Positions 418 through 50,017 of a stretch of 64,000 nt of DNA are shown here, piece by piece. Below the pieces are notes generated by a model. It searched no databases. It was not told the DNA's origin and saw nothing but the letters and a program-made list of their open reading frames with translations. A program made the translations under genes and the position numbers. Origin of the DNA: Candidatus Micrarchaeia archaeon (lineage in GTDB: Archaea > Micrarchaeota > Micrarchaeia > Anstonellales > Anstonellaceae); assembly GCA_041659465.1 (NCBI GenBank), contig JBAZYD010000008.1:7484-71483 (forward strand), read 5' to 3'. Position 1 is the stretch's first letter. Each line of letters opens with the position of its first letter.

Positions 418-447
418 GGCAATCACGGCGATTGTACGGAGCTTAGG

Positions 448-456
448 AATATAAAA
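448..456 (+). promoter_or_regulatory. TATA box (aatataaaa) for the hydrogenase operon
   Basis: The A/T box ends 23 nt before the ATG at 479. This is the same geometry seen at many other genes in the window and implies a leaderless mRNA. Confidence 0.5.
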
Positions 457-478
457 GGTACGAACGAATGTTGCGTTA

Positions 479-946
479 ATGGTTAAGGAAAACGGCAAGA
501 AGGACAGCCGCCCCCTGATAAACATACTCCACGAGGTGCAGGAAAAGCACGGCTACATCTCCGAGCACATGCTCAAGCAGATTGCGGTGGAGCAGGACAT
601 TCCGATTTCCCGGCTTTACGGGGTGGTGAAGTTCTATACCATGTTCCACACCGAGCCTCAGGGGAAGTATGTCATCGAGATTTGCGGCTCGCCCTCGTGC
701 GTTCTCAACAACGGCGTGAGGCTTGAAAAGTTCCTGGAGACCGAGCTTTCCACCGCAATAGGGGAAACGAGCAAGGACGGCATGTTTTCCCTTTACAAGA
801 CATCGTGCATAGGGTGCTGCGACGAGGCGCCCGCCATGCTGATAAACGGCGAGCCGCACACCAAGATGACAGTGGAGAGGCTCAAGCTCATCCTGAAAAA
901 GCTTCGCGAAGCCGAGGCAGCGCAGGCGGGAGAAAAAAAGAAGTGA
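479..946 (+). CDS. hydC: NuoE/HydC-like thioredoxin-fold [2Fe-2S] subunit
   Basis: 155 aa with 24-kDa-subunit-like Cys pattern (ICGSPSC ... CIGCCDEAP). It sits directly upstream of the NuoF-like and HydA genes. Confidence 0.85.
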   Translation: MVKENGKKDSRPLINILHEVQEKHGYISEHMLKQIAVEQDIPISRLYGVVKFYTMFHTEPQGKYVIEICGSPSCVLNNGVRLEKFLETELSTAIGETSKDGMFSLYKTSCIGCCDEAPAMLINGEPHTKMTVERLKLILKKLREAEAAQAGEKKK

Positions 947-4369: not shown

Positions 4370-4669
4370 CTACGGGGGCATCCTGTAGACCTGCAGGTGC
4401 GGCACGCCGCCTATGTTTTTAGCGTACGAGACCGCGAGCCCTGCCTTTTTCGCGGCCTGCAAAGCGCGCCTGCCCACGATGTTGGCGTTCTGGGCGGCTT
4501 TCAGCGCCTCCACCGCCTCTTTCTCATCGACTTTTTTCCCCAAGTAGAATGGCGCGTAGGCGGACAGGTCAAGCCTTGCCTTGCCGCTTTCAAGCACCTT
4601 GCCGATGAGCTCGATGTCGCAGAGCGCGACAATCTCGCCGTCAGGGGAGGCGTGCGTTTTCAGGTACAT
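4370..4669 (-). CDS. DUF424-like conserved archaeal protein
   Basis: 99 aa, MYLKTHASPDGEIVALCDIELIGKVL... This matches my recollection of the DUF424 family pattern. A TATA (cctaataaaa, 4690-4699) lies about 26 nt upstream. Confidence 0.6.
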   Translation of the reverse strand: MYLKTHASPDGEIVALCDIELIGKVLESGKARLDLSAYAPFYLGKKVDEKEAVEALKAAQNANIVGRRALQAAKKAGLAVSYAKNIGGVPHLQVYRMPP

Positions 4670-4790
4670 GATGGAAAGTCGGAGGCAAGCCTAATAAAAG
4701 ATGGGGCGGGCGCAAAAGCGCGCGGCGGATAAATGGCGGGCTGCAAAGCCGGGCGTCAGCCTAATAAAATATTGGCATGGAAATCGGAGC

Positions 4791-5459
4791 ATGGGAAATA
4801 TTGCGCGCCCGCTTGCATTCATTATGCTTGCAGCAGCCATCCTGCTTTCCCCCGGGTGCGCGCAAGTCGGCGCGCCCGCCCGGAATGAGACCGCAAGCTC
4901 GGCGAGGTTCATCCTGCCAGCGTCGGATGTTTCATATTATGCGCGCTACACCGTGGAGGAAGGGGGGCCGGCGACAAAGGAGATCTGGCGCGCGAAGGGC
5001 ATGATGAGGATTGACCTGTCTTCGCAGGGGATGCGCGCGCTTTCATTCTTCTTCGTGGATTCGCACGCCTACTCGTGCTCCTACGCGTCATCCAAGCCTG
5101 CGTGCTATGATGTGAGCGGCGCGCTTTCGCAGGGGGATGCGCAGAGGCTGGTGCCGTCGGAAAATGATGCAAAGGGCGGCACGCGGCTGGAAAGCGTCAA
5201 AATCGGCAGCGCAAATGGCAACTGCTACGGGGTTCCAATAGGGATGATGGGCATGCGCAAGCTCTGCTTTGCCCCGCAGGGCGTGGTGGCGTATGATTCG
5301 TACAATGTGAGCAAGGCGCTGCTGCACACCGAATACCTGACGGACATTGAGTACTACGAGGATGGGCTGGGGCCTGATGCCTCGGTGTTCGCGCTCCCCG
5401 CAACGCCTATCCCCGCGCCAGCCGTGCCTGAGCCGGCTGCACCTGATTTTGAAGAATGA
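4791..5459 (+). CDS. predicted lipoprotein, function unknown
   Basis: The internal ATG at 4791 gives MGNIARPLAFIMLAAAILLSPGC (signal peptide plus lipobox-like Cys). A second copy of cctaataaaa (4760-4769) lies about 26 nt upstream. Confidence 0.55.
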   Translation: MGNIARPLAFIMLAAAILLSPGCAQVGAPARNETASSARFILPASDVSYYARYTVEEGGPATKEIWRAKGMMRIDLSSQGMRALSFFFVDSHAYSCSYASSKPACYDVSGALSQGDAQRLVPSENDAKGGTRLESVKIGSANGNCYGVPIGMMGMRKLCFAPQGVVAYDSYNVSKALLHTEYLTDIEYYEDGLGPDASVFALPATPIPAPAVPEPAAPDFEE

Positions 5460-7880: not shown

Positions 7881-8996
7881 TCAGCCGGTCATTCCTTTCC
7901 TTGCCGTTTGCCGCCATTGGCCGTCCTTTCCCCTTTTCTTCTTCCTGTACTCGCCCGCCATTTGTTTGATGCCCGCAGCCAATTTAACCTTTGCGGAAAA
8001 GCCAAGCTCGCGGCGTGCGCGTTCGGTGGAATATGCCCTGTCAAGCGTGAGCTGCCGTATGTTCTCAGCGTCGAACGGCAGCGGGGCGGCAAGGCCAAGC
8101 GCAGAAAGCAGGCCGCCCACTGCCGAGGCTGATTGCACGAGGAGGAGGGAGGAATGGCGTGTGGGGGCAGGCACATTGAGCGCTTTTGCAGCCATTGCCA
8201 GGAGCTCTTCCTGCGTCGGCGCTTCCTCCCCGACTATGTTGTATTCCCGGCAGGAGACCATGTGCGCGCCAAGCGCTGCGAGCACTGCGCGCGCCGCGTC
8301 GTCCGCGTGCACAAGGGGTATCCTGTTCTGCCCGTCCCCGAATACCCTCATCCTGCCCTTTTCCAGGAACCTGAAAACATCGAAATATCCCTGCTCAAAG
8401 CCCGGGCCGTAAATCATGCCGAAGCGGAGCATCGCCGTGGGAATGCCGCGCCTGTGTGCGCGTGCCTCCCCTTCCGCGGCAAGCTTGCTTTTTCCGTAAG
8501 GGCTTTCTGTTTTTGGCCTGAATTCCTCATCCACTGTTTGCCCCCTGTATTCGCCGTAAATCGAGATGCTGCTTGCCAGCACCAGCTTGGAGAGCTTTTG
8601 CGGGCAGGAGGACACGAGGTTGCGCGTTGCCACTGCATTTGAGAGCTCAAGCTCGCGCCATGGGCGGCTGCCTACCAGGCCTGCAAGGTGGATTGCCCTG
8701 TCCACCCCGGCAAACGCAGTGTATGGCAGCGGGTCGGACGACAGGTCCCAGACAAAGCGCTCCACGCCGCGTGGAAGCTTCGCCATGCTTCCCGGGCGCA
8801 CGATTGCGCGCACTTTTTCCTTCCTTGCCAAAAGCGCCGCTAGCACGTGCCTGCCCAGCCTGCCGCTTGCGCCTGTGAGCAGTATCTTGCGATACGACGG
8901 CAGTTTTGCACGGCAAAACTGCGCCCATTCGAGCGAACGGCTCGAATCGGGAGCATCGCGAGAGATAGGCGCTGATGACGCCTGGATTTTCCCCAT
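7881..8996 (-). CDS. NAD-dependent epimerase/dehydratase (extended SDR)
   Basis: LLTGASGRLGRHV Rossmann motif and a YGKSK catalytic YxxxK. Confidence 0.8.
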   Translation of the reverse strand: MGKIQASSAPISRDAPDSSRSLEWAQFCRAKLPSYRKILLTGASGRLGRHVLAALLARKEKVRAIVRPGSMAKLPRGVERFVWDLSSDPLPYTAFAGVDRAIHLAGLVGSRPWRELELSNAVATRNLVSSCPQKLSKLVLASSISIYGEYRGQTVDEEFRPKTESPYGKSKLAAEGEARAHRRGIPTAMLRFGMIYGPGFEQGYFDVFRFLEKGRMRVFGDGQNRIPLVHADDAARAVLAALGAHMVSCREYNIVGEEAPTQEELLAMAAKALNVPAPTRHSSLLLVQSASAVGGLLSALGLAAPLPFDAENIRQLTLDRAYSTERARRELGFSAKVKLAAGIKQMAGEYRKKKRGKDGQWRQTARKGMTG

Positions 8997-9019
8997 GCCA
9001 TGAATAGGGAAAGCAGGCT

Positions 9020-9027
9020 ATTTATAA
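9020..9027. promoter_or_regulatory. shared central TATA box (atttataa) of a divergent pair
   Basis: It lies 24 nt from the minus-strand ATG at 8996 and 22 nt from the plus-strand ATG at 9049. It is the only A/T box in the 52-bp spacer. Confidence 0.6.
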
Positions 9028-9048
9028 CTTAGCTGAAAATGGGAGGCT

Positions 9049-9660
9049 ATGCTCATTGTCCTTGAAGGCATAGACGGCTCGGGCAAGGGCGGGCAAATCC
9101 GGCGCCTGCTTGCCTTTTTTTCGCAGAACAGGATAAAGTGCAGGCTGCACAAATACCCCACGCGAAGGGCAAAGGACGCATTTTTGCACCTTAAGGGAAA
9201 GAAGGATGTTGCGCCTGATGCGCTTGCGGACGTTTTTGCGGACGATATCGTTGCCGAGAGGAAAAAAATGGAGCGCGAAATCGCCGCTGGTTTTGTGGTG
9301 GTGTGCGACAGGTACCTCCATTCCACGCTCGCCTACCAGGGAGTGGCATTGGGGTTTGCCAAGCTACGGCGGAGGCTTTCAGGCATTGACGCGCTTGTGC
9401 CGGACATCGTCATTCTTCTTGATGTTCCCGCGCGGGTGTCGGGGGAAAGGAAGCGCGCGCAAAAGACGCCTGACAGGTTCGAGAAGGATGTTGCCTTCTT
9501 GGAGAAGGTGCGCGAGAATTACCTGCGCGAGGCGCGCGAAGGGTTCCTTGCCTACAAGTATGCCGTTGTGGACGCATCGCGCGCAAAGGGCGAGGTTTTC
9601 TCCGACGTGGTGCTGCACGTGGAGCCTTTGGTTGTAAAGAGAATGGGGAGAGGGACTTAA
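9049..9660 (+). CDS. tmk: thymidylate kinase
   Basis: MLIVLEGIDGSGKGGQ P-loop and DRYLHSTLAYQG. Confidence 0.85.
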   Translation: MLIVLEGIDGSGKGGQIRRLLAFFSQNRIKCRLHKYPTRRAKDAFLHLKGKKDVAPDALADVFADDIVAERKKMEREIAAGFVVVCDRYLHSTLAYQGVALGFAKLRRRLSGIDALVPDIVILLDVPARVSGERKRAQKTPDRFEKDVAFLEKVRENYLREAREGFLAYKYAVVDASRAKGEVFSDVVLHVEPLVVKRMGRGT

Positions 9661-9663: not shown

Positions 9664-10023
9664 TTACACGCCTTTCTCGCACCGCAGGTCCGCGCGCAGT
9701 TCGCACCGCTCGGCGATTGTGCCGTCCTTTCCGAAGCCGAAGAATGTGAGGCGCAGCACGTAGGTGTCAGGGTAGGAACTGGCGCCGCCGAAGATGCGCA
9801 CTTTTTTCGAGATTCTCTCACCAGGTAGCGCTATGCCGATCCTGAGGCGCCCGTGCGAGAGGAGCTTGTCGGGCGCGAGTGAAATCGCCTCGGGTATCAT
9901 GAGGTCGGCCTCCACCCATAGAGGGGAGGGCGCATCGTTTTTCACGGAAACTTCCATCTCAACCTCGCTGCGCACGTATGAGGGCATGCGGATTGGCGAA
10001 AAATGGGTGTTCGGGTTGAGCAT
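9664..10023 (-). CDS. hypothetical protein
   Basis: 119-aa ORF with an ATG start that fits the shared-TATA geometry. No motif recognised. Confidence 0.45.
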   Translation of the reverse strand: MLNPNTHFSPIRMPSYVRSEVEMEVSVKNDAPSPLWVEADLMIPEAISLAPDKLLSHGRLRIGIALPGERISKKVRIFGGASSYPDTYVLRLTFFGFGKDGTIAERCELRADLRCEKGV

Positions 10024-10044
10024 GCCTTGTATTCGTTGGGGAGA

Positions 10045-10052
10045 TTTTTAAT
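10045..10052. promoter_or_regulatory. shared central TATA box (tttttaat) of a divergent pair
   Basis: It lies 22 nt from the ATG at 10023 (minus) and 23 nt from the ATG at 10075 (plus). Confidence 0.6.
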
Positions 10053-10074
10053 CTTTGGCGCGGCAAGGGGGCAT

Positions 10075-10548
10075 ATGGGAATGCCTGAGAGCGAGCTCAT
10101 ACGCGGCGAGTGCCTGGTGCGCGACCTGCAGTTCAATGAGGAGGCGAAGATGACGCGCAAGTCCCTCGTGCGCTGGCTCGCCCTGTCGCTCGGGCTCATT
10201 TCACCCAATGAAACGCGCGCGGGCTTATTGGAAGTGCTTGAGGCGCTCCTTTATTTCCATTTCCAGAAAAGGCATGGTGGTGCTGACCCTGACATCTACC
10301 AGCTGCTTGGGAAAGTGAAGGAAATCAGGAAGGAGGAGCCCAACCCCAAAGCGGTGCGCTACCACCTGCTCCAGCTCAAGAAGCTGGGGGTCATCGAGGC
10401 AAAAACGCGCAGGTACCGATTCGTGCTCCCGCCCATGCAGGAGGACGACAATCTTGCGTCCGCGCTTTCGTATGTCTACAAGCAGAGGATGGACTCTTCT
10501 TTTGAGAAAATAAGGAAGGCAATGTCGCTGCTTGAGAAGACCCTTTAG
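10075..10548 (+). CDS. winged-helix DNA-binding protein (putative regulator)
   Basis: The internal ATG at 10075 fits the promoter geometry. The C-terminal half (AVRYHLLQLKKLGVIEAKTRRYRFV) looks like a wHTH wing. Confidence 0.5.
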   Translation: MGMPESELIRGECLVRDLQFNEEAKMTRKSLVRWLALSLGLISPNETRAGLLEVLEALLYFHFQKRHGGADPDIYQLLGKVKEIRKEEPNPKAVRYHLLQLKKLGVIEAKTRRYRFVLPPMQEDDNLASALSYVYKQRMDSSFEKIRKAMSLLEKTL

Positions 10549-13512: not shown

Positions 13513-14460
13513 CTAAAACCGCCCCACTATCTTTTCCCTAAGCGTGTTGAGTATGTCTATCTTGGACGCTTCGGACGCGATGGAGTTGGATGCCACTATC
13601 TCCTCTGCGCCCGCAAGCTGCAGCTTGGTGTAGGCGTCGCCCAGGAACAGCCCGTGCGTGCAGCCGCAGCACACGGACGCGGCGCCGCGCGCAAGCACTG
13701 CCTTGGTGGCGCGTATCATCGTGCCGCCCCCTGCAATCATGTCGTCGAGTATCACCACGTCCCTGTCTTTTACCTCAAAATCTGCCTCAAGGGATTCCAC
13801 ATTGCGCACTGCCTGGCGCTTGTGGTTCTTGTACTCGCCGCGCTTCTTCACCATGCTCTTGCCGTCGGCCTCGTTCACCATGTATGCCGCGCCCTGGTCA
13901 GGGCTTATGAAAAGCGCGTCTGGCTTCCGCGCCTTGAAGTATGCCACCAGCTCCTCGGAAAGCGAGAAGTTCCGAAGCTGCAGGTTGCCATGGCGGAACA
14001 CGCCGGCTTTTTTGAGGAAGTGGCAGTCGAAGGTGGCAACGGACGTGAAGCCCGCGGCGGAAAGCATCTGCAGCACAATTTCGGCCGAGAGCGCCTCCCC
14101 GTGCTTCCAAATCTTGTCCTGGCGCGCGTAGGGGAGATAGGGGATGATTGCCTCTGTGCGGTTGGCGATAGCGCCCACGGTCTTGCCCATTATGAAAAGC
14201 TGGAGAAGCGAGGAGTCCTGCTTTGGGTAGCAGCGATGCAGTATCTGCACGTTCTTGCCGCGGCTTTCCTCAAGCCTGTGCATGAAGATGTGCGACTCCT
14301 TGTCGGGGAAGTTCCTAAGCTCTATGTTTGAGGAGTAGATGTATGAGCAGTTCTGGCTCACCATGAGGTGGTATGGCTTGCCGTCAGGGGGGGAAATCTC
14401 GGATGGAGCCGGCTTGAATTCGGGCGTCTGTTGTGCGCCCTCAGTTGCTTGCGCGACCAT
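13513..14460 (-). CDS. prs: ribose-phosphate pyrophosphokinase
   Basis: IIPYLPYARQDK and the VVILDDMIAGGGTMIRA PRPP-binding loop. TATA tttaaaa (14483-14489) lies 26 nt upstream. Confidence 0.9.
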   Translation of the reverse strand: MVAQATEGAQQTPEFKPAPSEISPPDGKPYHLMVSQNCSYIYSSNIELRNFPDKESHIFMHRLEESRGKNVQILHRCYPKQDSSLLQLFIMGKTVGAIANRTEAIIPYLPYARQDKIWKHGEALSAEIVLQMLSAAGFTSVATFDCHFLKKAGVFRHGNLQLRNFSLSEELVAYFKARKPDALFISPDQGAAYMVNEADGKSMVKKRGEYKNHKRQAVRNVESLEADFEVKDRDVVILDDMIAGGGTMIRATKAVLARGAASVCCGCTHGLFLGDAYTKLQLAGAEEIVASNSIASEASKIDILNTLREKIVGRF

Positions 14461-14544
14461 GATGGAAATTGGGCGAAACGGGTTTAAAAGTCTTGGTGCC
14501 GCCGCCCACTTTTTCCCCTTTTTTTCGAGGCGCGCCTTGGGCGG

Positions 14545-14586
14545 GCGCCCTTGGCTTACTTTTTCCTGAGAAGTTCATCTGCCTCG
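14545..14586. repeat. 42-bp perfect direct repeat, copy A
   Basis: gcgcccttggcttactttttcctgagaagttcatctgcctcg is identical to 15525-15566. Confidence 0.9.
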
Positions 14587-14626
14587 ACTGCGCCCGTGCG
14601 CCGGCGGAGCTATCCAAGATAAGCTG

Positions 14627-15406
14627 CTACAGCTTCACTTGTGCCATATTCTTGCCTATGTATGACTGTGGAGAGTATTTTGTAAACTTCTTCCTACTCC
14701 CGCTTATTTTCCCATTCAGCCTGAAAAACTCGGACGCAAAAGGTTCGCCTTTTTTTGACCTTGCCATCCGCAGCATGACCCCCATGAATGGGTTGATGAC
14801 GTGCACTGTTTTCTTGCCTGAAGACGTGAATATGGCAATATTCGGATCGCCTGTTTCCTCTGCATTCGCGGCAAACCCCCCGGATTCGCATGCGTCCACT
14901 GCCGCTATTTTCTGCCCTTCCAATGAACGGAACCAGGCTACAAACTTCTCGGAGTTGATGCTTGATTTCCTGAAGAAAATGGCCGACTTTCCTTTTTTCC
15001 TGCCCATTTCGCCATGGCCAGAGTATAAAAATAGCGAAACTGCGTCTTTCCCTGCGTTCGAATTGAAAAAATTGTGGATGTTTTTCCAGCTGTCGTCTGA
15101 TGTGTGGAAGATTTGGACAGCAAATCCCTTTGCCTCGAGGTTTTTTGCAATCTTCTTTGGGGCAATCTTTTTGAAGTAGAATTTATGCCCGGAAGCGAAT
15201 ATGAAAAGCGAGAAAAGCGTTGTAAACGTGCCCAATGTAATCAATGAGAAGGCGGAAAGATGTGGATTGATGATTAAACTGATGATTTGCAGGGTAAGCA
15301 CGGCTAGGCACCCCCAACCAAGGCGGCGGGCCATTTTGGATTTGGTTGCGTCTATTACTATTGCAGCCTGCTTTTTGGCAGGTGCGTTGCCAGGTATATC
15401 CTCCAC
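14627..15406 (-). CDS. membrane-anchored clan CD (legumain/caspase-like) cysteine peptidase homolog
   Basis: Two N-terminal TM helices, then LFLYSGHG (catalytic His-Gly) and, about 40 aa later, IAAVDACESGGF (legumain-like Cys). GTG start at 15406 with TATA tttaaaaa (15428-15435) 22 nt upstream. Visibly AT-richer than its neighbours. Confidence 0.6.
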   Translation of the reverse strand: MEDIPGNAPAKKQAAIVIDATKSKMARRLGWGCLAVLTLQIISLIINPHLSAFSLITLGTFTTLFSLFIFASGHKFYFKKIAPKKIAKNLEAKGFAVQIFHTSDDSWKNIHNFFNSNAGKDAVSLFLYSGHGEMGRKKGKSAIFFRKSSINSEKFVAWFRSLEGQKIAAVDACESGGFAANAEETGDPNIAIFTSSGKKTVHVINPFMGVMLRMARSKKGEPFASEFFRLNGKISGSRKKFTKYSPQSYIGKNMAQVKL

Positions 15407-15524
15407 GAGCCAATCTGCCTTGAAGTGTTTAAAAATAATGTGGTTAAAAAGTAAAAAAGTTGTTCGTTAGCGGGCGCGATGGTTTGCATTAATCCGCGCG
15501 GTTGCCGGTGTTTTGCTCGCTTGC

Positions 15525-15566
15525 GCGCCCTTGGCTTACTTTTTCCTGAGAAGTTCATCTGCCTCG
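15525..15566. repeat. 42-bp perfect direct repeat, copy B
   Basis: Identical to 14545-14586. It covers the last 9 codons, the stop and 11 nt downstream of the 53-aa GatE-tail ORF. Confidence 0.9.
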
Positions 15567-15697: not shown

Positions 15698-15712
15698 TGG
15701 GGGCAAACCTGC

Positions 15713-18173: not shown

Positions 18174-19550
18174 CTAGAAGTCAAAATCCACTATTTCCGA
18201 GCGCACGGAAATCTCGCCCGCGATGTTTTTCTCCATCATTTCGCGCACGCGCGCCATTTTCTTCTCGCGCCCAAGCACCCATATCAGCTTGGCGTATGCC
18301 GCCTCCGGCGTGAAGTCGCACATGTGCCCGATTGCGCCTGCCTCGGCAAGCACCCTGCCGGACGAGTAGACGTTGAGGTTTATCCTGCCGTAAATCGTCT
18401 GCGGCGCGATTACCACCGGGATGCCGGAAGAGATGAGCGCGGAAATCTCCTTGATGACCGGCACGGCATCCTTGTTGTTGGAGGTATTCGAGGGCACGTG
18501 CCCAAGCCCGGTACCCGCAATCACCACGCCGTCGTATTTTGAGAGGGAAGCCAGCATTTCAGGCTTTATGCCAGGGTAAGAGTAGATGAGCGCGACGTTG
18601 GGGTTGAGCCTGGTGTCAAGCAAGAGCTTGCCTTGGTTCCTCGGCTGCGCGAGTTGGGAGATTCTCTCGAACTTGCCCGAAAGCGGGGACACGCGCGCTG
18701 CGGGCCTGCAGTTTATGGAACGGAAGGCGTCGCGCCGCGACGTGTGCATCTTTCGCACCTTGGCGCCGAAGTGGAGGAGGCAGGAGTCGTCCGAGAGGTT
18801 CTCATGCATGCAGATGAACACGCCGGACAAATCAGAGCCTGCGCCAAGAAGAGCAGCCTGCATGTTGAGCGCCGCATCGGACGAGCTCCTGTCCGAGCTT
18901 CGCTGGCTGCCTGTGAAAATCACAGGGCAGGGAAGGTTTTGCAGCATGAAAGAGAGCGCCGCGGACGAATAGGACATCGTGTCCGTGCCGTGCGTGATGG
19001 CCACGCCCTGCGCGCCGTCGTTTATTTCGTCGGCCGCAGCCTGCGCGATTTTCTGCCAGTGGACTGGCGTGGTGTCCTCGGATGATATTGAAAAGAGCGA
19101 TTTCGCGCGCAGCGGCTTTTTCGAGAGGTGGGCAAATGCGTCCACAAGCTCCGCAGGCGTGGTTGCCGCATCCACTGCGCCTGTGCGGTAGTCGATTCTG
19201 GAGGCTATGGTGCCTCCGCAGCCCAGTATGGTGAGGAAATCCTTCTTTGGCGCCGAAGCGGCGCGCACCTGAGCAGCCGAGGACGGGGGCTTCCCGGTTT
19301 CGACTACCTTGATTTTCTGCACGTTTTCCTTCCTTATCCCTATGTTGTAGCCTGAGGAAAGCTTGATGGAGATTGCACTTGGGTCGGAGGACGGGAGCAA
19401 TATTCCCTTGTGCTCGCCGCTTGGGCCTGAAACCAGAACCGAGTCGCCCGGCTGGGCGGCGTTTTCAGCCGCGCCTTGCCCGATGGCGCCAGGAACGGCT
19501 TGCCTGCCGGACGGCGCTGCGGGGGCTTTTTGGGATTTTGCCTTTGCCAT
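18174..19550 (-). CDS. gatD: Glu-tRNA(Gln) amidotransferase subunit D
   Basis: Asparaginase-like domain (LGCGGTIAS, ITHGTDTM). The ATG at 19550 (MAKAKSQK...) fits the shared-TATA geometry. The upstream 43 codons of the track ORF overlap the promoter. Confidence 0.9.
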   Translation of the reverse strand: MAKAKSQKAPAAPSGRQAVPGAIGQGAAENAAQPGDSVLVSGPSGEHKGILLPSSDPSAISIKLSSGYNIGIRKENVQKIKVVETGKPPSSAAQVRAASAPKKDFLTILGCGGTIASRIDYRTGAVDAATTPAELVDAFAHLSKKPLRAKSLFSISSEDTTPVHWQKIAQAAADEINDGAQGVAITHGTDTMSYSSAALSFMLQNLPCPVIFTGSQRSSDRSSSDAALNMQAALLGAGSDLSGVFICMHENLSDDSCLLHFGAKVRKMHTSRRDAFRSINCRPAARVSPLSGKFERISQLAQPRNQGKLLLDTRLNPNVALIYSYPGIKPEMLASLSKYDGVVIAGTGLGHVPSNTSNNKDAVPVIKEISALISSGIPVVIAPQTIYGRINLNVYSSGRVLAEAGAIGHMCDFTPEAAYAKLIWVLGREKKMARVREMMEKNIAGEISVRSEIVDFDF

Positions 19551-19571
19551 GCAGGAAATTGGGCGCCTCAG

Positions 19572-19579
19572 TTTTAAAT
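19572..19579. promoter_or_regulatory. shared central TATA box (ttttaaat) of a divergent pair
   Basis: It lies 22 nt from the ATG at 19550 (minus) and 23 nt from the ATG at 19602 (plus). Confidence 0.6.
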
Positions 19580-19601
19580 GGCTAGGTGGCGAAATAGGCA
19601 T

Positions 19602-20690
19602 ATGGGATATGAAGAGAAGCTGCGCGAGCTCGAAGAGGAGATGGCGCGCACGCAGAAGAACAAGGCTACCGAGTACCACATCGGGCTTCTCAAGGCAAAG
19701 ATTGCAAAGCTCAAGCGCGAGATAATCGCGCCCAAGAAATCAGGCGTGAGGACTGGCGGCTTTGACGTCAAGAAAAGCGGGGACGCCACGGTTGTCTTCA
19801 TCGGCTTGCCCTCGGTCGGAAAGTCCACACTGCTGAACGTGCTGACAGGGGCTAAATCAAAAACGGCTTCATATGCCTTCACCACGCTCACATGCATTCC
19901 AGGCGTGATGGAATACAACGGGGCGAAGATACAGCTTTTGGACTTGCCCGGCATTATTGTCGGGGCGAAAGAGGGAAAGGGGCGCGGCAAGGAAGTGCTT
20001 GCTGTTGCAAGGAATGCTGACCTTGTGCTCATACTTCTCGATGTTTTCCAGCCCGGCATCCTTGCGAACATAAAGGACGAGCTTGCGGGCATAGGCATCC
20101 GCCTTGACGAGGAGCCGCCCAAGATATACATTACAAAAAAACTCCGGGGAGGAGTGGAGATAAATTCCACCGTGCCGCTCACCAAGCTGAACGAGAGGAT
20201 GATAACGGGCGTGATAAACGAGTACGGGATGCACAATGCGTCCATTGTCTTCCGCGAGGATGCCACCGTGGACAGGCTCATCGACGTGCTTGCAGGCAAC
20301 CGCAAGTACAACCACTCGCTTGTCGTGCTCAACAAGGTGGACATGGTGAGCGAGGAATACCTCAAGGCGATAAAATTCGACTATGTGCCTGTTTCCGCAG
20401 AGAAAGGGCAGAATGTCGAGGAACTGAAGAAGGCGATTTTTGATGGCCTGCGCATGATGAGGGTGTACACCAAGCCGCGCATGGACGTTGCAGATTTGAA
20501 GGAGCCCATGATGATGAGGACAGGGGCCACTATCGAGGATGCGTGCAACAGGCTGCACCGCGACCTCGCGCGCGACTTCAAGTACGCGCTCGTCTGGGGC
20601 AAGAGCGCGAAATTCCCTGGGCAGAAGGTGGGCATACAGCACGTGCTGCAGGAAGGGGACATTTTCTCGATAATTAAGAAGCAGGGATAG
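19602..20690 (+). CDS. DRG-family GTPase with TGS domain
   Basis: GLPSVGKSTLLN, FTTLTCIPG, DLPGII, NKVD and a C-terminal TGS-like segment. Confidence 0.9.
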   Translation: MGYEEKLRELEEEMARTQKNKATEYHIGLLKAKIAKLKREIIAPKKSGVRTGGFDVKKSGDATVVFIGLPSVGKSTLLNVLTGAKSKTASYAFTTLTCIPGVMEYNGAKIQLLDLPGIIVGAKEGKGRGKEVLAVARNADLVLILLDVFQPGILANIKDELAGIGIRLDEEPPKIYITKKLRGGVEINSTVPLTKLNERMITGVINEYGMHNASIVFREDATVDRLIDVLAGNRKYNHSLVVLNKVDMVSEEYLKAIKFDYVPVSAEKGQNVEELKKAIFDGLRMMRVYTKPRMDVADLKEPMMMRTGATIEDACNRLHRDLARDFKYALVWGKSAKFPGQKVGIQHVLQEGDIFSIIKKQG

Positions 20691-22025: not shown

Positions 22026-22275
22026 CTCCGACCGTTGTTTTCATTCCTGCGAGGATTGCAGGGTTCTTCCTTGACTCGGCAATGAGCGACGCGAGGTCCT
22101 TTTTTATCACCGAGTCGAATGGGAACTGGTCCGCCACCTTGGCGAGGAAAAAGAGGGTTTCATTGTTGCGCTTCACAGTGGTCTCCTTGGTGACGAAAAA
22201 CAGGTTTTCCCCGGGTTTGTGGATTTGCCTGCCGATCTTCAATGCCGGCATTTCGATTGTTGCTTCGGGCGCCAT
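22009..22275 (-). CDS. small hypothetical protein
   Basis: ATG at 22275 (MAPEATIEMPALKIG...) chosen from the shared-TATA geometry. It is the first gene of a four-gene small-protein run. Confidence 0.45.
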   Translation of the reverse strand: MAPEATIEMPALKIGRQIHKPGENLFFVTKETTVKRNNETLFFLAKVADQFPFDSVIKKDLASLIAESRKNPAILAGMKTTVGVEQIA

Positions 22276-22298
22276 GCAAAGTTTCTGTTGCCTGCGCC

Positions 22299-22306
22299 TT
22301 ATATAG
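22299..22306. promoter_or_regulatory. shared central TATA box (ttatatag) of a divergent pair
   Basis: It lies 24 nt from the ATG at 22275 (minus) and 23 nt from the ATG at 22329 (plus). Confidence 0.6.
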
Positions 22307-22328
22307 CTTTTCGTCAAATCCAGATATT

Positions 22329-23006
22329 ATGAATGCAAACGAGCTGGTATCGCACCTGCGCCACAAGGGAAAGGAGAAGAACCTGGAGGGCATGGCGAAC
22401 TTCGGCATCAACGTGGACAATGCGTGCGGGGTTGCCATACCGGAGCTTCGGAGGCTTGCAAAGCACATTGGGTTGCACCACGGGCTGGCATCCGACCTGT
22501 GGCGCACGCAGGTGCACGAGGCAAGGATACTTGCGGCGTACATTGACGATTACAAGCGCGTGACCGAGCGGCAGATGGAGGACTGGGTGGCTGATTTTGA
22601 CTCCTGGGACCTGTGCGACCAGGTGTGCGGCAACCTGTTTGACAAGACAGATTTTGCGCACAAGAAGGCGATTGAGTGGAGCTTTCGCAAGGAGGAATAC
22701 GTGAAGCGCGCTGGCTTTGTGCTCATGGCGACACTGGCAGTGCACGACAAGCGCGCGGGAAAGGCGGCGTTCGAGAAGTTCTTCCCGCACATAATCCGAG
22801 GCTCCACTGATGAGAGGAACTTCGTGAAAAAGGCCGTGAACTGGGCGCTTAGGCAGATTGGCAAGAGGAGCCTCACGCTCAACAAGGAGGCGATTGATGT
22901 CGCGCGCCAGATAGCGAAAATCGACTCCCCTTCGGCAAAATGGGTGGCGTCAAACGCGCTCCATGAATTGGAGGGCGAGGCTGTGCAGAAAAGGCTGAAG
23001 GAATGA
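22329..23006 (+). CDS. DNA alkylation repair protein (AlkC/AlkD-like HEAT repeats)
   Basis: The pattern LWRTQVHEARILAAYI ... DSWDLCDQVCGNLF ... EYVKRAGFVLMATLAVHD ... VKKAVNWALRQIGKR matches my recollection of the family. Start taken at the internal ATG at 22329. Confidence 0.75.
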   Translation: MNANELVSHLRHKGKEKNLEGMANFGINVDNACGVAIPELRRLAKHIGLHHGLASDLWRTQVHEARILAAYIDDYKRVTERQMEDWVADFDSWDLCDQVCGNLFDKTDFAHKKAIEWSFRKEEYVKRAGFVLMATLAVHDKRAGKAAFEKFFPHIIRGSTDERNFVKKAVNWALRQIGKRSLTLNKEAIDVARQIAKIDSPSAKWVASNALHELEGEAVQKRLKE

Positions 23007-23981: not shown

Positions 23982-24160
23982 CCCACTGCAAGCAGCGGGG
24001 CATCATCGCCATTCGGTCGAAATATTGCCAGTTGGGCCCGCCGCAAGCGGCGAGGTATCGCCCATCTGGCAATGAAAATCGCAGGCAGCACGGAAAGGCG
24101 ATGCCATCAATAACCATTATTAAGTAATAGCATATAAGATACTGCATAGAAGGTGACCCG

Positions 24161-34059: not shown

Positions 34060-34458
34060 CTAGACGTAATCCAGCTTTGATTTCCCCTTGACGGCAATCA
34101 CCGGCACTCCCAATGCCAGCAGCCGCCTGCGCAGCCCAACGTCGTTGGTGGCAACGCAGGAATGGTTTTTCTGCGCGTATTTAAAAATCCAGTCGTCGGC
34201 GCGGGAAGGGAATCCCTGCTCGGAGACCACCTCAACCGGGAAAAGCGCCTTTATTTTCGGGAGGTTCTGCAGGGCAAAGCGCGCCGCGCGCGCCTTGTTG
34301 CCCGTCTTTCCGGCGATTGTTCCAAGCTCTGCCATCACGGCGGATGGGATGACGAGCGTGAACGGCTCGGCTGCAATGCGCAATAACTCGCCTGGCAGGT
34401 CGAATGCATACTCGAATTGTGACAGGAGCATGTTTGTGTCTATGAGGATTTTCTGCAT
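34060..34458 (-). CDS. PIN-domain protein (Fcf1/Utp24-like)
   Basis: 132 aa from the ATG at 34458, with ILIDTNMLL and CVATNDVGLRRRL. The 149-codon upstream extension in the track is Arg/His-rich and non-protein-like. Confidence 0.75.
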   Translation of the reverse strand: MQKILIDTNMLLSQFEYAFDLPGELLRIAAEPFTLVIPSAVMAELGTIAGKTGNKARAARFALQNLPKIKALFPVEVVSEQGFPSRADDWIFKYAQKNHSCVATNDVGLRRRLLALGVPVIAVKGKSKLDYV

Positions 34459-34479
34459 GCGGCATTTTTGGCTGCAAGG

Positions 34480-34487
34480 TTTTAAAG
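34480..34487. promoter_or_regulatory. shared central TATA box (ttttaaag) of a divergent pair
   Basis: It lies 22 nt from the ATG at 34458 (minus) and 23 nt from the ATG at 34510 (plus). Confidence 0.6.
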
Positions 34488-34509
34488 CGAGACGATGGAG
34501 AAGAAGCGC

Positions 34510-35040
34510 ATGGCAGAGATTTGCATCCTGAGGCTCGGGCACCGCCAGATGCGCGACCAGCGGATTACCACCCATGTTTTCCTTGTGGCGCGCGCGCTGG
34601 GCGCCACCGAAGGCGTGCTTTCCGGCGACCTGGACGAGTCGGTGGTGAAGGGGATTGCGCGCGTTTCGGAAATTTGGGGCGGGGAATTCAAGGTGAGGTA
34701 CGAGCAGAACTGGAAAAGATTCCTCGCGGAGCGCAAGCGCGCAGGCTGGAAGGTGGCGCACCTCACAATGTACGGGGAGGATTTCCGCGCGGCCGCAAAA
34801 AAGCTTTCCGCAAAAAAATGCATAGTCATTGTGGGCGCGGGGAAAGTCCCACGCGAGGCATACGAGCTTGCGGACTTCAACATTTCGGTCACGACGCAGC
34901 CGCATTCGGAAGTGGGCGCGCTTGCGCTTTTCCTGGACAGGTATTTCTCGGGGAAGGAATTGGGGAAAAAATTTTCAGGCAGGCTCACAATTGTGCCAAA
35001 TGCGTGTGGCAAGGTAGTGCTTCATGGTGAAAGCGACTGA
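34510..35040 (+). CDS. tRNA (cytidine56-2'-O)-methyltransferase aTrm56 (SPOUT)
   Basis: MAEICILRLGHRQMRDQRITTHVFLVARALGA matches my recollection of the aTrm56 N-terminus. Start at 34510 from promoter geometry; the track start is 34495. Confidence 0.8.
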   Translation: MAEICILRLGHRQMRDQRITTHVFLVARALGATEGVLSGDLDESVVKGIARVSEIWGGEFKVRYEQNWKRFLAERKRAGWKVAHLTMYGEDFRAAAKKLSAKKCIVIVGAGKVPREAYELADFNISVTTQPHSEVGALALFLDRYFSGKELGKKFSGRLTIVPNACGKVVLHGESD

Positions 35041-39470: not shown

Positions 39471-40625
39471 CTATCTTCCGGCAATTATTTTTATAATATC
39501 CCCGTTTTCAAGCGCGTGCTCAGCGCCCACGCGCAGGTGGCGCCTGCAGTCCACTGCGCCTATGAACTTGTGCGCCAGGTCTGTGTGCACCATCGCGGCA
39601 AGCTGCAGGGCGGTGGTGCCCTTTGGCACGAGATACGCGTCCGGCAGCACCTCTCCCTTGTTGTTCGAGTACTTATGCTCGTCCTCAACAGGGTAGACTA
39701 TGATGCAATTCAGGTGCCGGTAGACTATGTAGTCTATGATTTGCTGCACCCCGCTGCCGCTGTTTGCGGCAAGCACGCGCTTCATGGCAGACAGCGCCGA
39801 AGCCTGCTTCTCGTTCGGTGCCCCCTTGACTGAAAAATCCAGGTCCCCTGGCCTATACTCCACCATACCTGCATGCTCAGCTTTGCGCAGGGCAAGCTCC
39901 ACTGCCGCGCTGCACGGCATGGACGGCCTCCCGGATTCGCGCTTTACCCTCTCGTACCCGTCCCGCGCGCCCGCGATGTCCATCTTGTTGCATGCAACGA
40001 CGATAGGCATCCTCATCTCCACCAGCTTTCTTGCCAGCCGCTTCGCCCCTTCGGCATCCGGCAGGCCCGCAGCCACATCCAGCCCGCACTCAAGCGCAGC
40101 CCTGTGCAGCATTGCCTCTGTGATTTTCAGGCCGGTGAGCGAGCCTGCCAGCCCGGCTGCGCCCTTTCCCTTTGCCCCCCGCGCCATGATGTCGGAAAGC
40201 CACAGCGCTATCTCCTCTTGCAGGAACGCGACTTCCTCGGCGGGCGAGGCTGATTCGCAGGGGTTTCCCTGCAAGTCGGTTTTCCCCGTGGCATCCACCA
40301 CCTGGATGAGCACGTCTGCCTCGCGTATGCTGTCCAGGAACTTGTTGCCCAATCCCTTCCCGGCGTGCGCATCCGGCACCAGCCCCGGCACGTCTATCAT
40401 GCCGACCGGCACAAGGCGCACTCCGCCCGAGCACCTGCTGTTCTTCGGGTTGCACGAGGGCAAGCCCAGCTCAGCATGCGGGCATGGCGCGCGCACATAG
40501 GTGACGCCCCTGTTTGGCGTAATCGTGGTGAAAGGGTAATTCGCAATCTGGACATCCACCAGCGTGGCTGCCGCAAAGAATGTGCTTTTGCCCTTGTTGG
40601 GCGCCCCCACCACGCCGATAAGCAT
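39471..40625 (-). CDS. Obg/YchF-family GTPase with TGS domain
   Basis: GAPNKGKST, YPFTTITPN, DVPGLV, CNKMD and a C-terminal TGS-like segment (LENGDIIKII). ATG at 40625 fits TATA gtttaaaac (40648-40656). Confidence 0.85.
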   Translation of the reverse strand: MLIGVVGAPNKGKSTFFAAATLVDVQIANYPFTTITPNRGVTYVRAPCPHAELGLPSCNPKNSRCSGGVRLVPVGMIDVPGLVPDAHAGKGLGNKFLDSIREADVLIQVVDATGKTDLQGNPCESASPAEEVAFLQEEIALWLSDIMARGAKGKGAAGLAGSLTGLKITEAMLHRAALECGLDVAAGLPDAEGAKRLARKLVEMRMPIVVACNKMDIAGARDGYERVKRESGRPSMPCSAAVELALRKAEHAGMVEYRPGDLDFSVKGAPNEKQASALSAMKRVLAANSGSGVQQIIDYIVYRHLNCIIVYPVEDEHKYSNNKGEVLPDAYLVPKGTTALQLAAMVHTDLAHKFIGAVDCRRHLRVGAEHALENGDIIKIIAGR

Positions 40626-40719
40626 AAGCATATTTTATATGGCTGAAGTTTAAAACATAGCCTGATGAAGCATTATTTATAAACACAAGGATTCTCAAAA
40701 AACCACGCAAAGTGATGCG

Positions 40720-45455: not shown

Positions 45456-45510
45456 CGCTGCCCCTTTGGCTGGCGAGAGCGTTTTAAACCCCTTCATCCC
45501 GACTATTGGC

Positions 45511-46707
45511 ATGGCATCTTCCGGGGGCAAACCGACGCTTTCCTCCCTCATTGGCAACCCGACCGCCATAGCGGCGGCAAGGGCATGGGCGCAGGGCTGG
45601 CAGGACGGGAAGCGGCAGCCACCCCTTCTCATCACAGGCTCCACAGGCACAGGCAAGACCGCGCTTGCTCACGCGATTGCAGGCGAATTCGGCTGGGAGC
45701 TTTTCGAGTTCAACGCATCCGACTTCAGGAACGAGGAAAACGTCACCGCGCTGCTCTCGCACTCCACGACGTCCTCCTCCCTTTTCGGCGGCACGCGCCT
45801 CATCCTGATTGACGATGCTGACTCCCTTTCCGGCACTGCCGACAGGGGCGGGGCAGGCGCAATCGCAAAAGTATTGGCAGGCGCACGCCAGCCAGTCATC
45901 CTGACCGCAGCCGACTACTATGACAGGAAGATGTCCTCGATAAAGGCGCACTGCCAGCAACTTGAGCTCCGCCGCTCGCATGTCTCCACAATCGCGAAAT
46001 TCCTGGGGCGGGAGGCGGCCTCGCGCGGCATTGCGCTTGCAGAAGGCGACGCGGAAAAAATCGCGCAGGCGGCCGCGGGGGACATCCGCGCCGCGCTCAA
46101 CGACCTTGCCGCGCACAACACGTCCGCAAGCCGCGACCGGGAGAAGAACATATTCGACATCATGCGCGACATCTTCAAGGCGGAAAAATACTCCGACGCG
46201 CGCAAGGCGGCGTTCTCATCCGAAGCGGACCACGACACGCTCAAGCTCTGGATTGCGCAAAACCTCCCGACGGCATGTGCCAAGCCGTTTGACCTGGCCG
46301 AAGGCTACAACAGGCTCTCGCGCGCAGACATGTTCGACGGCAGGATAAAGCGCACGCAATACTGGGGCTACCTGCGCTACTCTTCCGACCTGATGACTGC
46401 AGGGGTGTCACTTTCAAAATCATCGCCATCGCAGCAGCACGGCTTTGTGCCATTTGCATACCCGGACTACATCCGCGCCATGGGCTCGTCGAAATCCGCG
46501 CGCACGCTGCGGAAGGGCGCGCTGTCCAAAATCGCGCGCATGTGCCACTGCTCCATTGCGCAGGCTGGGGGCTACCTGCCGCTGTTTGAGCTGGTGGCAA
46601 AAAAGGACGGGGCGGCATTCGGCGAGCTGTTTGACGAGGACGAGCTAGCATTTATAATGAAGAAGGATGCGAAGAAGGCAGCAGCAAGGAAAAAGGCAAA
46701 GGAGTAG
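45511..46707 (+). CDS. rfcL: replication factor C large subunit
   Basis: LLITGSTGTGKTALAHAIA, LILIDDADSL and GDIRAALNDL. ATG at 45511 with TATA ttttaaac (45482-45489) about 22 nt upstream. The track start at 45466 is TTG. Confidence 0.75.
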   Translation: MASSGGKPTLSSLIGNPTAIAAARAWAQGWQDGKRQPPLLITGSTGTGKTALAHAIAGEFGWELFEFNASDFRNEENVTALLSHSTTSSSLFGGTRLILIDDADSLSGTADRGGAGAIAKVLAGARQPVILTAADYYDRKMSSIKAHCQQLELRRSHVSTIAKFLGREAASRGIALAEGDAEKIAQAAAGDIRAALNDLAAHNTSASRDREKNIFDIMRDIFKAEKYSDARKAAFSSEADHDTLKLWIAQNLPTACAKPFDLAEGYNRLSRADMFDGRIKRTQYWGYLRYSSDLMTAGVSLSKSSPSQQHGFVPFAYPDYIRAMGSSKSARTLRKGALSKIARMCHCSIAQAGGYLPLFELVAKKDGAAFGELFDEDELAFIMKKDAKKAAARKKAKE

Positions 46708-48168: not shown

Positions 48169-48597
48169 CTAAAATGCGGCTTCTGCCATTTCCAGCCTCT
48201 TGTGCCTCTCCTGCTCAAGCTCTTTCTTCCTCTCTTTATAGATTTTGTGAAGCACTCCCACTGTCCTTGCGTTTATCTTGACCTTGCCCCCATGCGGCCG
48301 CAGCGCGCCTGAGAACGTTTTCGGGATGTGCAGCAACTCATGTATGATGACCTTCTCCTTCTCCTCATCGGAGAGCGGGTCATAGTGCTGCGTGAGCACC
48401 TCTATTATGTAAAACGTGCCGACCGAGAGCGCCTTCTGCCAGATGTCCGGCAGGTTCCAAATCCTGGCGTACGCGCGCGCCGTGGCATTCCTCGACCGCA
48501 TGCAGATTATCCTGAACTCATTCACATGCCCGTAGGACAGCACGTCCACTATCTCGGAAACCTTCCTCTCGACATCAGGGGCCATCTCCACGTCCAT
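48169..48597 (-). CDS. HExxH metallopeptidase-like protein
   Basis: 142 aa with the IIHELLHIP zinc motif. Confidence 0.55.
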   Translation of the reverse strand: MDVEMAPDVERKVSEIVDVLSYGHVNEFRIICMRSRNATARAYARIWNLPDIWQKALSVGTFYIIEVLTQHYDPLSDEEKEKVIIHELLHIPKTFSGALRPHGGKVKINARTVGVLHKIYKERKKELEQERHKRLEMAEAAF

Positions 48598-48619
48598 GGC
48601 TAAATTTCCTGCATTCTCA

Positions 48620-48627
48620 TTTTATAA
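48620..48627. promoter_or_regulatory. shared central TATA box (ttttataa) of a divergent pair
   Basis: It lies 23 nt from the ATG at 48597 (minus) and 23 nt from the ATG at 48650 (plus). Confidence 0.6.
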
Positions 48628-48649
48628 CTGCGCCGCCAAATTACCGCGT

Positions 48650-50017
48650 ATGGGGGACGGGCAAGGGTTTTTCGCGCGCTGCGCAAAGGCGCGCGATGAG
48701 GTTTCGCGCATGCGCGCGCCGCTATTGGTGCACCACTACGACTGCGACGGCATCACCTCCGGCGCCATAGTGACGGGCTCGCTTGGAAAGATGGGCAAGC
48801 CCTGCCGCGTGCAGTCTGTGCGCAAGCTGGACGCGGAATTCCTCGCCTCGATTGCGCACGAGCCGGAAATAATATTCTCAGACCTTGGCAGCGGGACGGC
48901 GGAAATCGATTCCCTGGCAGGCAACGTGGTGGTGATAGACCACCACCAGCCGAAAAGCAGCGCGCACCTGCAGGCAAACCCCCACCTGTTCGGCTTTGAC
49001 GGCGGGACGGACATCTCTGCAGCAGGCTGCGCATATTTTGTCTTCGGGGAATTCGTGGAGCTGGGAATTGTCGGCGCAATAGGCGATGTCCAGGCCCCGC
49101 TTTGCAGCCTGAACAAAATCATGCTCGACCAAGCGGTGGCGCAGGGCGCAATATCCGTGGAAAAGGACATACTGCTGTTCGGCAGGAACAGCCGCCCGCT
49201 GAAGCAATTCCTTCTCTATGCGGACGAGCCTTACCTGCCAGGCATCACTGGGCAGGATGACGCCTGCAATGCGCTGCTGCAGGAGCTTGGCATTCCGCAA
49301 AAGCAAAAGGGCGCGGCAAATGGCGGCGAGCAGGGCGATGGCATCGGAGCGCTCGGAAGCGGCGAAAAATGGAGGACGTACTCCGACCTTTCCTTCACTG
49401 AGCGCCGCGCGCTCGTTTCCTCGCTTGCAAAGCTTCTTGCCATGCGCTCCTCGCCCGAAGCGGCCCTGCGCCTTGTCGGAGACACGTATAATCTTCTTCG
49501 CATGCCTCAGGGCACGCTCCTTCGCGACGCATCCGAATTCTCCACTCTCCTCAATGCATGCGGCAGGAACAACAGGCCCGAGCTTGGCGTGTCCGTGTGC
49601 CTGCAGCGGCAAGGCGCATACGAGGAGGCGCAGGCGCTCCTTGCAGAGCACCGCAAGAACCTGCGCGCGGGGATTGAGTTTGCGTCCAAGAACACGCAGG
49701 ACATCGGCAAGTTCCTGCTGCTGGACGCGCGCGGAGTGATTCCCGACAGCATAATTGGCGTGGTGGCTGGCATGCTCTACGCAGGCTCGCGCAAAAAGCC
49801 CATACTCGCGCTCTCGCTTGAGGCGCCTGGCAAGATAAAACTGTCCACAAGGGGCACGCGCGCGCTCGTGGAAGCAGGGTTGAACCTCGGAAAAATCCTC
49901 TCGGAATGCTGCGCGCAGGTCGGCGGCGCGGGCGGCGGGCACAACATCGCGGCAGGGGCGAGCATACCTGAAGAAAAGCTGGATGACTTCCTAAAAGAGT
50001 TTGCCTCCCGCTTGTGA
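48650..50017 (+). CDS. DHH/DHHA1 phosphoesterase (archaeal RecJ/GAN-like)
   Basis: HHYDCDGITSG, VIDHHQP and GGGHNIAAGA. Start at 48650 from promoter geometry; the track start is 48596. Confidence 0.8.
   Translation: MGDGQGFFARCAKARDEVSRMRAPLLVHHYDCDGITSGAIVTGSLGKMGKPCRVQSVRKLDAEFLASIAHEPEIIFSDLGSGTAEIDSLAGNVVVIDHHQPKSSAHLQANPHLFGFDGGTDISAAGCAYFVFGEFVELGIVGAIGDVQAPLCSLNKIMLDQAVAQGAISVEKDILLFGRNSRPLKQFLLYADEPYLPGITGQDDACNALLQELGIPQKQKGAANGGEQGDGIGALGSGEKWRTYSDLSFTERRALVSSLAKLLAMRSSPEAALRLVGDTYNLLRMPQGTLLRDASEFSTLLNACGRNNRPELGVSVCLQRQGAYEEAQALLAEHRKNLRAGIEFASKNTQDIGKFLLLDARGVIPDSIIGVVAGMLYAGSRKKPILALSLEAPGKIKLSTRGTRALVEAGLNLGKILSECCAQVGGAGGGHNIAAGASIPEEKLDDFLKEFASRL

Follow-up and report, generated by a model that had tools for sequence, protein, structure and literature searches.

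How two divergent genes can both be expressed when hardly more than 50 bp separate their start codons is the question raised by a stretch of 64,000 nucleotides from a Candidatus Micrarchaeia archaeon (contig JBAZYD010000008.1, positions 7,484 to 71,483; hereafter the window), in which an earlier, sequence-only reading had pointed to six divergent gene pairs with their ATG codons 52-54 bp apart and one A/T box between them. The answer which best fits the analysis reported here, and to which a probability of roughly 85% can be given, is that the six spacers are bidirectional archaeal core promoters, each organised around one palindromic TATA box and each giving rise to two leaderless mRNAs.

At all six pairs (see Table 1) the CAT on the left and the ATG on the right were verified at the coordinates proposed, and the spacings and the octamers quoted in the sequence-only reading are all present. 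Every spacer, 51-53 nt in length, contains a single central octamer rich in A or T (W); its distance from the start codons, which had been put at 22-24 nt, turned out to be 21-23 nt leftward and 21-22 nt rightward, so that the single box stands and the distance has to be slightly shortened.

Three chance tests were designed independently of the choices made by the earlier reader. ATG codons opening open reading frames (ORFs) of at least 80 codons cluster 23-27 nt downstream of the centres of W-runs (at least 7 nt), with 40 in these five bins against a background of about 2 per bin outside them. The pattern CAT-W-run-ATG, with a run of at least 6 nt centred no more than 2 nt off the midpoint, was counted at every spacing from 30 to 90 bp: without any ORF filter the window has 8 matches at 52-54 bp, whereas 300 second-order Markov simulations averaged 1.33 ± 1.11 and never exceeded 5; once each flank must also open an ORF of 60 codons or more, 6 matches are left at 52-54 bp, exactly the pairs of the earlier reader, and 4 in the other 58 bins (Poisson P(≥6) about 9e-8 against the window's other spacings). 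The 52-54 bp spacing is far beyond chance in the window, and the enrichment anticipated by the sequence-only reading is found both there and in the loci of relatives. By our gene list and the comparison with orthologs, the window has about 12 divergent junctions flanked on each side by a plausible gene, and the shared-TATA module occurs in 6, perhaps 7, of them, that is, in about half. Cruder counts were set aside: the A/T profile taken ahead of the initial ATG of every called ORF gave a weak bump only, at -29..-24, since a large number of these ATGs are incorrect or operon-internal, and was replaced by the box-first test; the comparison of all W-runs of at least 6 nt with all ATGs was dropped as too noisy; the box-free CAT/ATG histogram for ORFs of at least 80 codons (11 at 52-54 bp versus about 2 per bin elsewhere) was swamped by the spurious ORFs which abound in a sequence of 57% GC.

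The window, with a GC content of about 57%, is archaeal sequence and encodes archaeal markers (GatD/GatE and aTrm56, among others). Its phosphoribosyl pyrophosphate (PRPP) synthetase (13513-14460), used as a query with one genome per species, matched exclusively metagenome-assembled genomes of Candidatus Micrarchaeota/Micrarchaeia, a phylum presently named Microcaldota in the NCBI taxonomy (kingdom Nanobdellati, corresponding to DPANN); six syntenic relatives (L001-L006, 89-94% protein identity) and seven more distant ones (L007-L013, 69-75%) were obtained in this way. When the GTPase encoded at 39471-40631 was used to scan metagenomes, ten further close relatives (L014-L021, L029, L030) were retrieved, together with a mid-distance group and numerous distant archaea. 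L001-L006 contain 25 matches at 52-54 bp and the metagenome relatives 21, versus 2 elsewhere; each of the six pairs keeps this spacing in most relatives in which both genes are adjacent, and all 12 genes are conserved as proteins. Among close relatives the spacing, the TATA box and the A/T-rich element at -10 are conserved, and the remainder of the spacer drifts.

Conservation is deepest for pair 5, whose spacing is 51-53 bp in nine of ten relatives, the tenth (L011) being split to 97 bp. In L009, L010, L013 and L028, where the PIN-domain protein retains 41-59% and Trm56 60-71% identity, the two starts lie 51 bp apart around TTTTAAAG, TTTTAAA or CTTAAAAG, all other positions of the spacer being unrecognisable. 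Compensatory indels between the two half-spacers of this pair were considered and rejected, the shifts (25.5-27.5 nt) amounting to normal tolerance. The PIN gene, i.e., the ortholog of 34458, starts with GTG (CAC on the plus strand) in L009, L010 and L028, at a position which preserves the 51 bp; this suggests leaderless initiation at GUG. In the mid-distance Micrarchaeota the leaderless signature is kept within a slightly broader range of 51-57 bp, and the distant archaeal loci (GTPase identity at most 53%, GC 0.49) lack both the 52-54 bp peak and the leaderless signature; within the set of sequences retrieved, the pattern is restricted to this lineage.

The organisation of the promoters emerges from a consensus of 26 ATG-anchored sequences, comprising the 12 halves of the shared spacers and 14 unidirectional promoters. 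At -30..-23 the consensus is TTTTAAAA, a perfect palindrome centred at -26.5, with T or A exclusively at -28..-25, which lends support to the proposal that one quasi-palindromic box could serve both directions. Upstream of the box, A is favoured at -34/-33 (at -33 in 15 of the 26) and G occurs at -32 in 12; downstream, a proximal element is A-rich at -11..-8, with A at -10 in 18 promoters and T at -7 in 16. The nucleotide preceding the ATG is a pyrimidine in 24 of the 26 promoters and in all 12 shared halves, versus 46% for all ATGs of the window. Since the centre of the box is 26.5 nt away from the A of the ATG, its mirror image places a second start at 53 bp (2 x 26.5), as observed (52-54 bp), and a spacer of 52 nt is too short to hold another box at the distance needed. 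Over 52 pair instances, from the window and its close relatives, the distance between box centre and ATG is 26.4 ± 0.9 nt on the left and 26.4 ± 1.2 nt on the right; both half-spacers are equally constrained in length.

A phylogenetic footprint, obtained by comparing each half-promoter with its orthologs after anchoring at the ATG, indicated two maxima of identity, one reaching 0.92 over the TATA box at -31..-24 and the other at -12..-8, and the lowest values (0.44-0.58) at -6..-2, where a Shine-Dalgarno site would fall. Codon-periodic conservation begins directly after the ATG, and position -1 alternates between C and T among orthologs, being a pyrimidine in every sequence compared. Shine-Dalgarno-like motifs (GGAGG, GAGGT or GGTGA) were found 5-8 nt before operon-internal genes only, as at 26589, 26868, 28464, 34014, 48157, 53104, 53985 and 62735; the first genes of transcription units are without them. 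The position of the TATA centre (about 26.4 nt from the ATG), the pyrimidine at -1, the low identity at -6..-2 and the confinement of Shine-Dalgarno motifs to operon interiors all argue for the leaderless mRNAs postulated earlier, and translation appears to be initiated in two modes of the classical archaeal kind, leaderless for first genes and Shine-Dalgarno-led for internal ones.

The same spacing, expressed as -22/-23, had also been claimed for a number of unidirectional genes, and a box was indeed found in each case, its centre being 23.5-27.5 nt upstream of the start; a correction applies to 15406, this being the GTG of a weakly scoring, lineage-specific ORF and the least secure of the unidirectional examples. 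The surrounding region of about 1.7 kb (14500-16250, from PRPP synthetase to GatE) has no nucleotide counterpart in L001-L006 and contains weakly scoring ORFs only, namely 14627-15406 (minus strand, GTG start) and 15479-15826 (plus strand).

Any statement about ATG-to-ATG distances depends on the choice of the start codons, seven of which, out of 12, had been shifted by the earlier reader from the position given by the longest ORF. In our gene calling a greedy longest-ORF version picked shadow ORFs, and a codon-usage score was used in its place. Orthologs support six of the seven shifts, by stops and frameshifts. For 10075, 19550, 19602, 22329 and 48650 at least one ortholog has an in-frame stop upstream with no start in between, so that translation in that ortholog could not begin before the proposed ATG: the stop is found 15 codons upstream of the equivalent of 10075 in L001, 8 codons upstream of that of 22329 in L003, L004 and L005, and 2 codons upstream of that of 48650 in L029, and stops with no upstream start are carried by L004 and L006 for 19550 and by L004 for 19602. 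In the case of 34510, a 1-nt indel in L014, L021 and L029 shifts the upstream ATG at 34495 into another frame; in that of 34458, the upstream extension of 149 codons is a shadow ORF lying over the well-scoring Trm56 gene, and the PIN domain starts directly after M150. The starts at 8996, 9049, 10023 and 48597 are the first ones already. Only 22275 is left undiscriminated by the orthologs, owing to a conserved alternative TTG 14 codons upstream; this TTG sits within the -10 element conserved in front of the partner gene, a location which explains its conservation.

According to the mechanism proposed here, a single TATA box, to be bound by the TATA-binding protein (TBP), has its centre 26-27 nt away from the ATG's A (+1) on either strand; TBP and transcription factor B (TFB) would assemble on it in either orientation, RNA polymerase being recruited to the side faced by the complex, and initiation would occur at the A of either start codon or no more than about 1-2 nt away, at a pyrimidine(-1)/A(+1), so that both mRNAs would be leaderless. 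The distance between the two ATGs would then coincide with that between the two transcription start sites (TSSs; 2 x 26.5 = 53 bp), an equality which holds only if the mRNAs are leaderless, as they appear to be. Each half-spacer would carry its own signals, consisting of a patch resembling the TFB-recognition element (BRE) outside the box, an A/T-rich stretch at -11..-7 and the pyrimidine(-1)/A(+1) initiator, and operon-internal genes would rely on Shine-Dalgarno sites instead. In this streamlined DPANN genome such a module would represent the commonest state of a divergent pair, kept by purifying selection and apparently not serving to couple related genes. The spacing, the lone palindromic box, the initiator, the missing Shine-Dalgarno site and purifying selection on the length of both halves are seen in the sequences themselves; bidirectional firing from one box, competition between the two orientations or their mutual exclusion, and the exact start sites are in this scheme what we infer from the promoter architecture. 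No evident functional link joins the two genes of any pair (epimerase and thymidylate kinase, GatD and a DRG-type GTPase, PIN and aTrm56, and the others), which makes compaction a likelier driver than co-regulation.

A first modification of this scheme, which is a variant of it and not a true alternative, is that the mRNAs are not strictly leaderless, transcription starting 1-5 nt upstream of each ATG and the start sites thus being about 45-52 bp apart. Among the Haloferax volcanii transcripts assigned to the leaderless class, about 20% have 1-5 additional nucleotides (PMC4983044), the start sites of bidirectional promoters in Pyrococcus furiosus are 49-50 bp apart, and the mid-distance relatives of the window extend over 51-57 bp; however, the invariant pyrimidine(-1)/A(+1) at the ATG corresponds to the archaeal initiator, and a TATA centre at -26.5 to the mapped archaeal promoters, and short leaders are on balance unlikely. 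Appreciably less probable is the view that each box drives one gene only, its partner being transcribed from elsewhere with a long 5' untranslated region (UTR) and the spacing reflecting compaction that came to a halt at the edge of the promoter. This view draws on the fact that the direction of an archaeal promoter is dictated by the BRE, whose signal is weak here, and on the observation that in P. furiosus the second direction often yields only non-coding antisense RNA (PMC6640164); nevertheless, an unused half-spacer could vary, whereas both halves are equally constrained in length (26.4 nt, within about 1 nt), both have the A/T element at -10 and a strictly conserved pyrimidine at -1, the spacing of 51-54 bp is kept, in pair 5 down to 41-59% identity of the left-hand gene, and no Shine-Dalgarno motif is available to serve a leadered mRNA. 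As to chance, or ATGs chosen to fit, the shifting of 7 of the 12 starts away from the longest ORF and the noise of the naive histogram of CAT and ATG codons opening long ORFs might be held in its favour, yet it has a negligible probability and is refuted by the spacing statistics (P about 1e-7 against the window's other spacings), by the simulations (0 of 300 reached the observed count), by the ortholog stops and frameshifts which confirm the chosen starts and by the identical peak in the relatives.

Some points weigh against the bidirectional, leaderless interpretation. The -34..-32 A-rich/G patch is a weak BRE-like signal, and it is not separately seen on both sides of every pair, AAG/CTT flanks being visible in several pairs and not in all. 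The right-hand gene of pair 1 (9049) has GGAGG at -7..-3, closer to the start than a normal Shine-Dalgarno site. Sequence does not tell how strongly one direction is transcribed relative to the other, and one of them could be nearly silent. A claim extending to the whole genome would have to lean on statistics whose basis is 64 kb together with loci from relatives which for the most part are orthologous to the window, and a search of the literature for promoters, TSSs or transcript 5' ends of Micrarchaeota or DPANN archaea returned nothing relevant.

The mechanism itself is already known from Thermococcales and Haloferax, and the window very probably provides a new instance of it, not a new mechanism. 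In Thermococcus kodakarensis one TATA box is common to two divergent start sites, whose dominant spacing is 52 bp, and a similar situation is encountered in H. volcanii (Warman et al., bioRxiv 10.1101/2020.01.31.928960). As in those promoters, a symmetric TATA box is located midway between the divergent starts, and the spacing would be twice the distance from TATA box to TSS. Unlike them, where TSSs were mapped and many of the T. kodakarensis cases are non-coding or have 5' UTRs, the products considered here are protein-coding on both sides and apparently leaderless, the spacing being directly visible as the ATG-to-ATG distance; moreover, roughly every second divergent gene pair of the window has the module, and this in a DPANN lineage and in a phylum for which we found no promoter or TSS literature. 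The preprint is reported to have appeared later in Nat Microbiol 2021 as 'Widespread divergent transcription from bacterial and archaeal promoters is a consequence of DNA-sequence symmetry'.

In P. furiosus a BRE-TATA-BRE motif midway between starts about 50 bp apart has been described (Grunberger et al. 2019, PMC6640164), and divergent initiation from one box was confirmed by in vitro transcription, with starts 49 bp apart (PMC6640164). A common, nearly symmetric TATA box is shared with the Pyrococcus promoters, whose core is TTTAAA flanked by inverted BREs; by contrast, the latter have a spacing of 49-50 bp, leadered mRNAs and a second transcript which is usually a presumably non-functional antisense RNA, whereas here the spacing is 52-54 bp, genes are found on both sides and the BRE is weak. 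Leaderless mRNAs amount to 72% in H. volcanii (some with GUG starts) and to 69% in Sulfolobus solfataricus, and are likewise found in Pyrobaculum aerophilum (PMC4983044). The window resembles these archaea in having a TATA box about 26 nt upstream of the start codon of first genes, a preference for AUG and Shine-Dalgarno sites in internal position only; the difference is that for Micrarchaeota we found no account of such a regime in the literature, and that it is deduced here from the nucleotide sequence. Bacterial bidirectional promoters (Warman et al.; PMC12825309) also have a symmetric core element, used on both strands, and a fixed start spacing, but in that case sigma70 -10 hexamers overlap, the spacing is about 18 bp, TBP and TFB are not involved and the transcripts are not leaderless by construction.

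As a tentative extension, to which we assign somewhat less than even odds, divergent pairs in this lineage may have the shared-TATA module of 53 bp by default and under selection that maintains it, and not as an occasional by-product of TATA symmetry, with TATA boxes acting as hot-spots of insertion; ancestrally 8 or 9 divergent junctions had the module, and now 6, perhaps 7, of about 12 do. If this were true, the transcription of unrelated housekeeping genes would be tied to one TBP site, entailing obligate competition or co-variation, and an insertion that duplicates the box would instantly resolve a shared promoter into two, two such events being visible in the window. In a streamlined genome, the bidirectional-promoter principle established by TSS mapping in Thermococcales and Haloferax can serve as the main means of expressing two genuine genes from some 50 bp of DNA, going beyond antisense noise. 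The results also provide a sequence-level model for Micrarchaeota and DPANN archaea, made up of the BRE-like patch, the palindromic box, the -10 element, the pyrimidine/A initiator, leaderless first genes and internal Shine-Dalgarno sites, and a rule for annotation, given that longest-ORF calls are wrong for 7 of the 12 genes and that placing the TATA box at -26 mends them.

Table 1. Divergent junctions of the window: six pairs with a putative common TATA box, a possible seventh pair and the halves of former shared promoters (window coordinates; arrows lead from the longest-ORF start to the start adopted)
Feature	Span	Starts (strand)	Start-to-start distance	TATA box	Genes	Box and spacing in relatives
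Pair 1	8994..9051	8996 (minus) / 9049 (plus)	53 bp (52-nt spacer)	9020..9027, ATTTATAA	NAD-dependent epimerase/dehydratase family (minus); thymidylate kinase (plus)	TATA-like box kept, and spacing 52-54 bp, in L002, L004, L006
Pair 2	10021..10077	10023 (minus) / 10075 (plus)	52 bp	10045..10052, TTTTTAAT	119-aa protein (minus); second protein (plus, 10003 → 10075); both with no Pfam match	TTTTTAA unchanged across 6 sequences; 52-53 bp in five relatives
Pair 3	19548..19604	19550 (minus) / 19602 (plus)	52 bp	19572..19579, TTTTAAAT	GatD (minus, GTG 19679 → ATG 19550); DRG/Obg-like GTPase (plus, 19578 → 19602)	
Pair 4	22273..22331	22275 (minus) / 22329 (plus)	54 bp	22299..22306, TTATATAG	88-aa conserved protein (minus); DNA alkylation repair protein (plus, 22242 → 22329)	53 bp in four relatives
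Pair 5	34456..34512	34458 (minus) / 34510 (plus)	52 bp	34480..34487, TTTTAAAG	PIN-domain protein (minus, 34905 → 34458); tRNA 2'-O-methyltransferase aTrm56 (plus, 34495 → 34510)	see text
Pair 6	48595..48652	48597 (minus) / 48650 (plus)	53 bp	48620..48627, TTTTATAA	metallopeptidase-like, first in minus-strand operon (minus); DHH/DHHA1 phosphoesterase (plus, 48596 → 48650)	ATTTTATAAC unchanged across 8 sequences; 52-53 bp in seven relatives
Possible seventh pair	424..481	GTG 426 (minus) / ATG 479 (plus)	53 bp	448-456, AATATAAAA		
Split former shared promoter	4667..4793	4669 (minus) / 4791 (plus)	122 bp	TAATAAAA at each start		one TAATAAAA box, 52-53 bp, in L001, L004, L006
Half of an ancestral shared promoter	40623..40656	40625 (minus)		40649-40656, TTTAAAAC	GTPase	54 bp to the AAA ATPase
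Other half of the same promoter	45482..45513	45511 (plus)		45482-45489, TTTTAAAC	AAA ATPase	54 bp to the GTPase

With regard to the possible seventh pair, which lies outside the loci available from relatives, the minus-strand gene may alternatively start at ATG 417, with a 9-nt leader. Two separate TATA boxes are found at the junctions 4669/4791, 40625/40715-40720 and 59774/59876, whose starts are 90-122 bp apart, and in none of the six pairs. To judge from the relatives, both 4669/4791 and 40625/45511 descend from shared promoters that were split in the lineage of the window. The former contains an insertion of 70 bp flanked by a 12-bp direct repeat, AGCCTAATAAAA (4688-4699 and 4758-4769); the insert (4700-4770), searched for as a repeated element, has no further copies in the window or in the relatives' loci. 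At the latter, a lineage-specific insert of about 4.9 kb (40649-45489) separates the GTPase from the AAA ATPase and encodes a YkuD-like L,D-transpeptidase (40720-41607) and a protein of 1254 aa with no Pfam match (41691-45455); neither gene has a match in any fetched locus, and no transposase is evident in the insert. The near-identical octamers at its edges, TTTAAAAC and TTTTAAAC, look like an 8-bp target duplication.

A further CAT and ATG (24107 and 24161) are 54 bp apart around ATATAA within 24105-24163; the right-hand gene (24161-24838) is real, and no ORF of at least 60 codons starts on the 24107 side. This could be a unidirectional promoter from which a divergent transcript, antisense or non-coding, is produced as well, or a chance occurrence. 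As to RNA genes, the single tRNA called by ARAGORN in the window is a tRNA-Met (35956-36032); a second one of 97 nt, probably intron-containing and missed by that program, was identified by Rfam at 37753-37849 on the plus strand.

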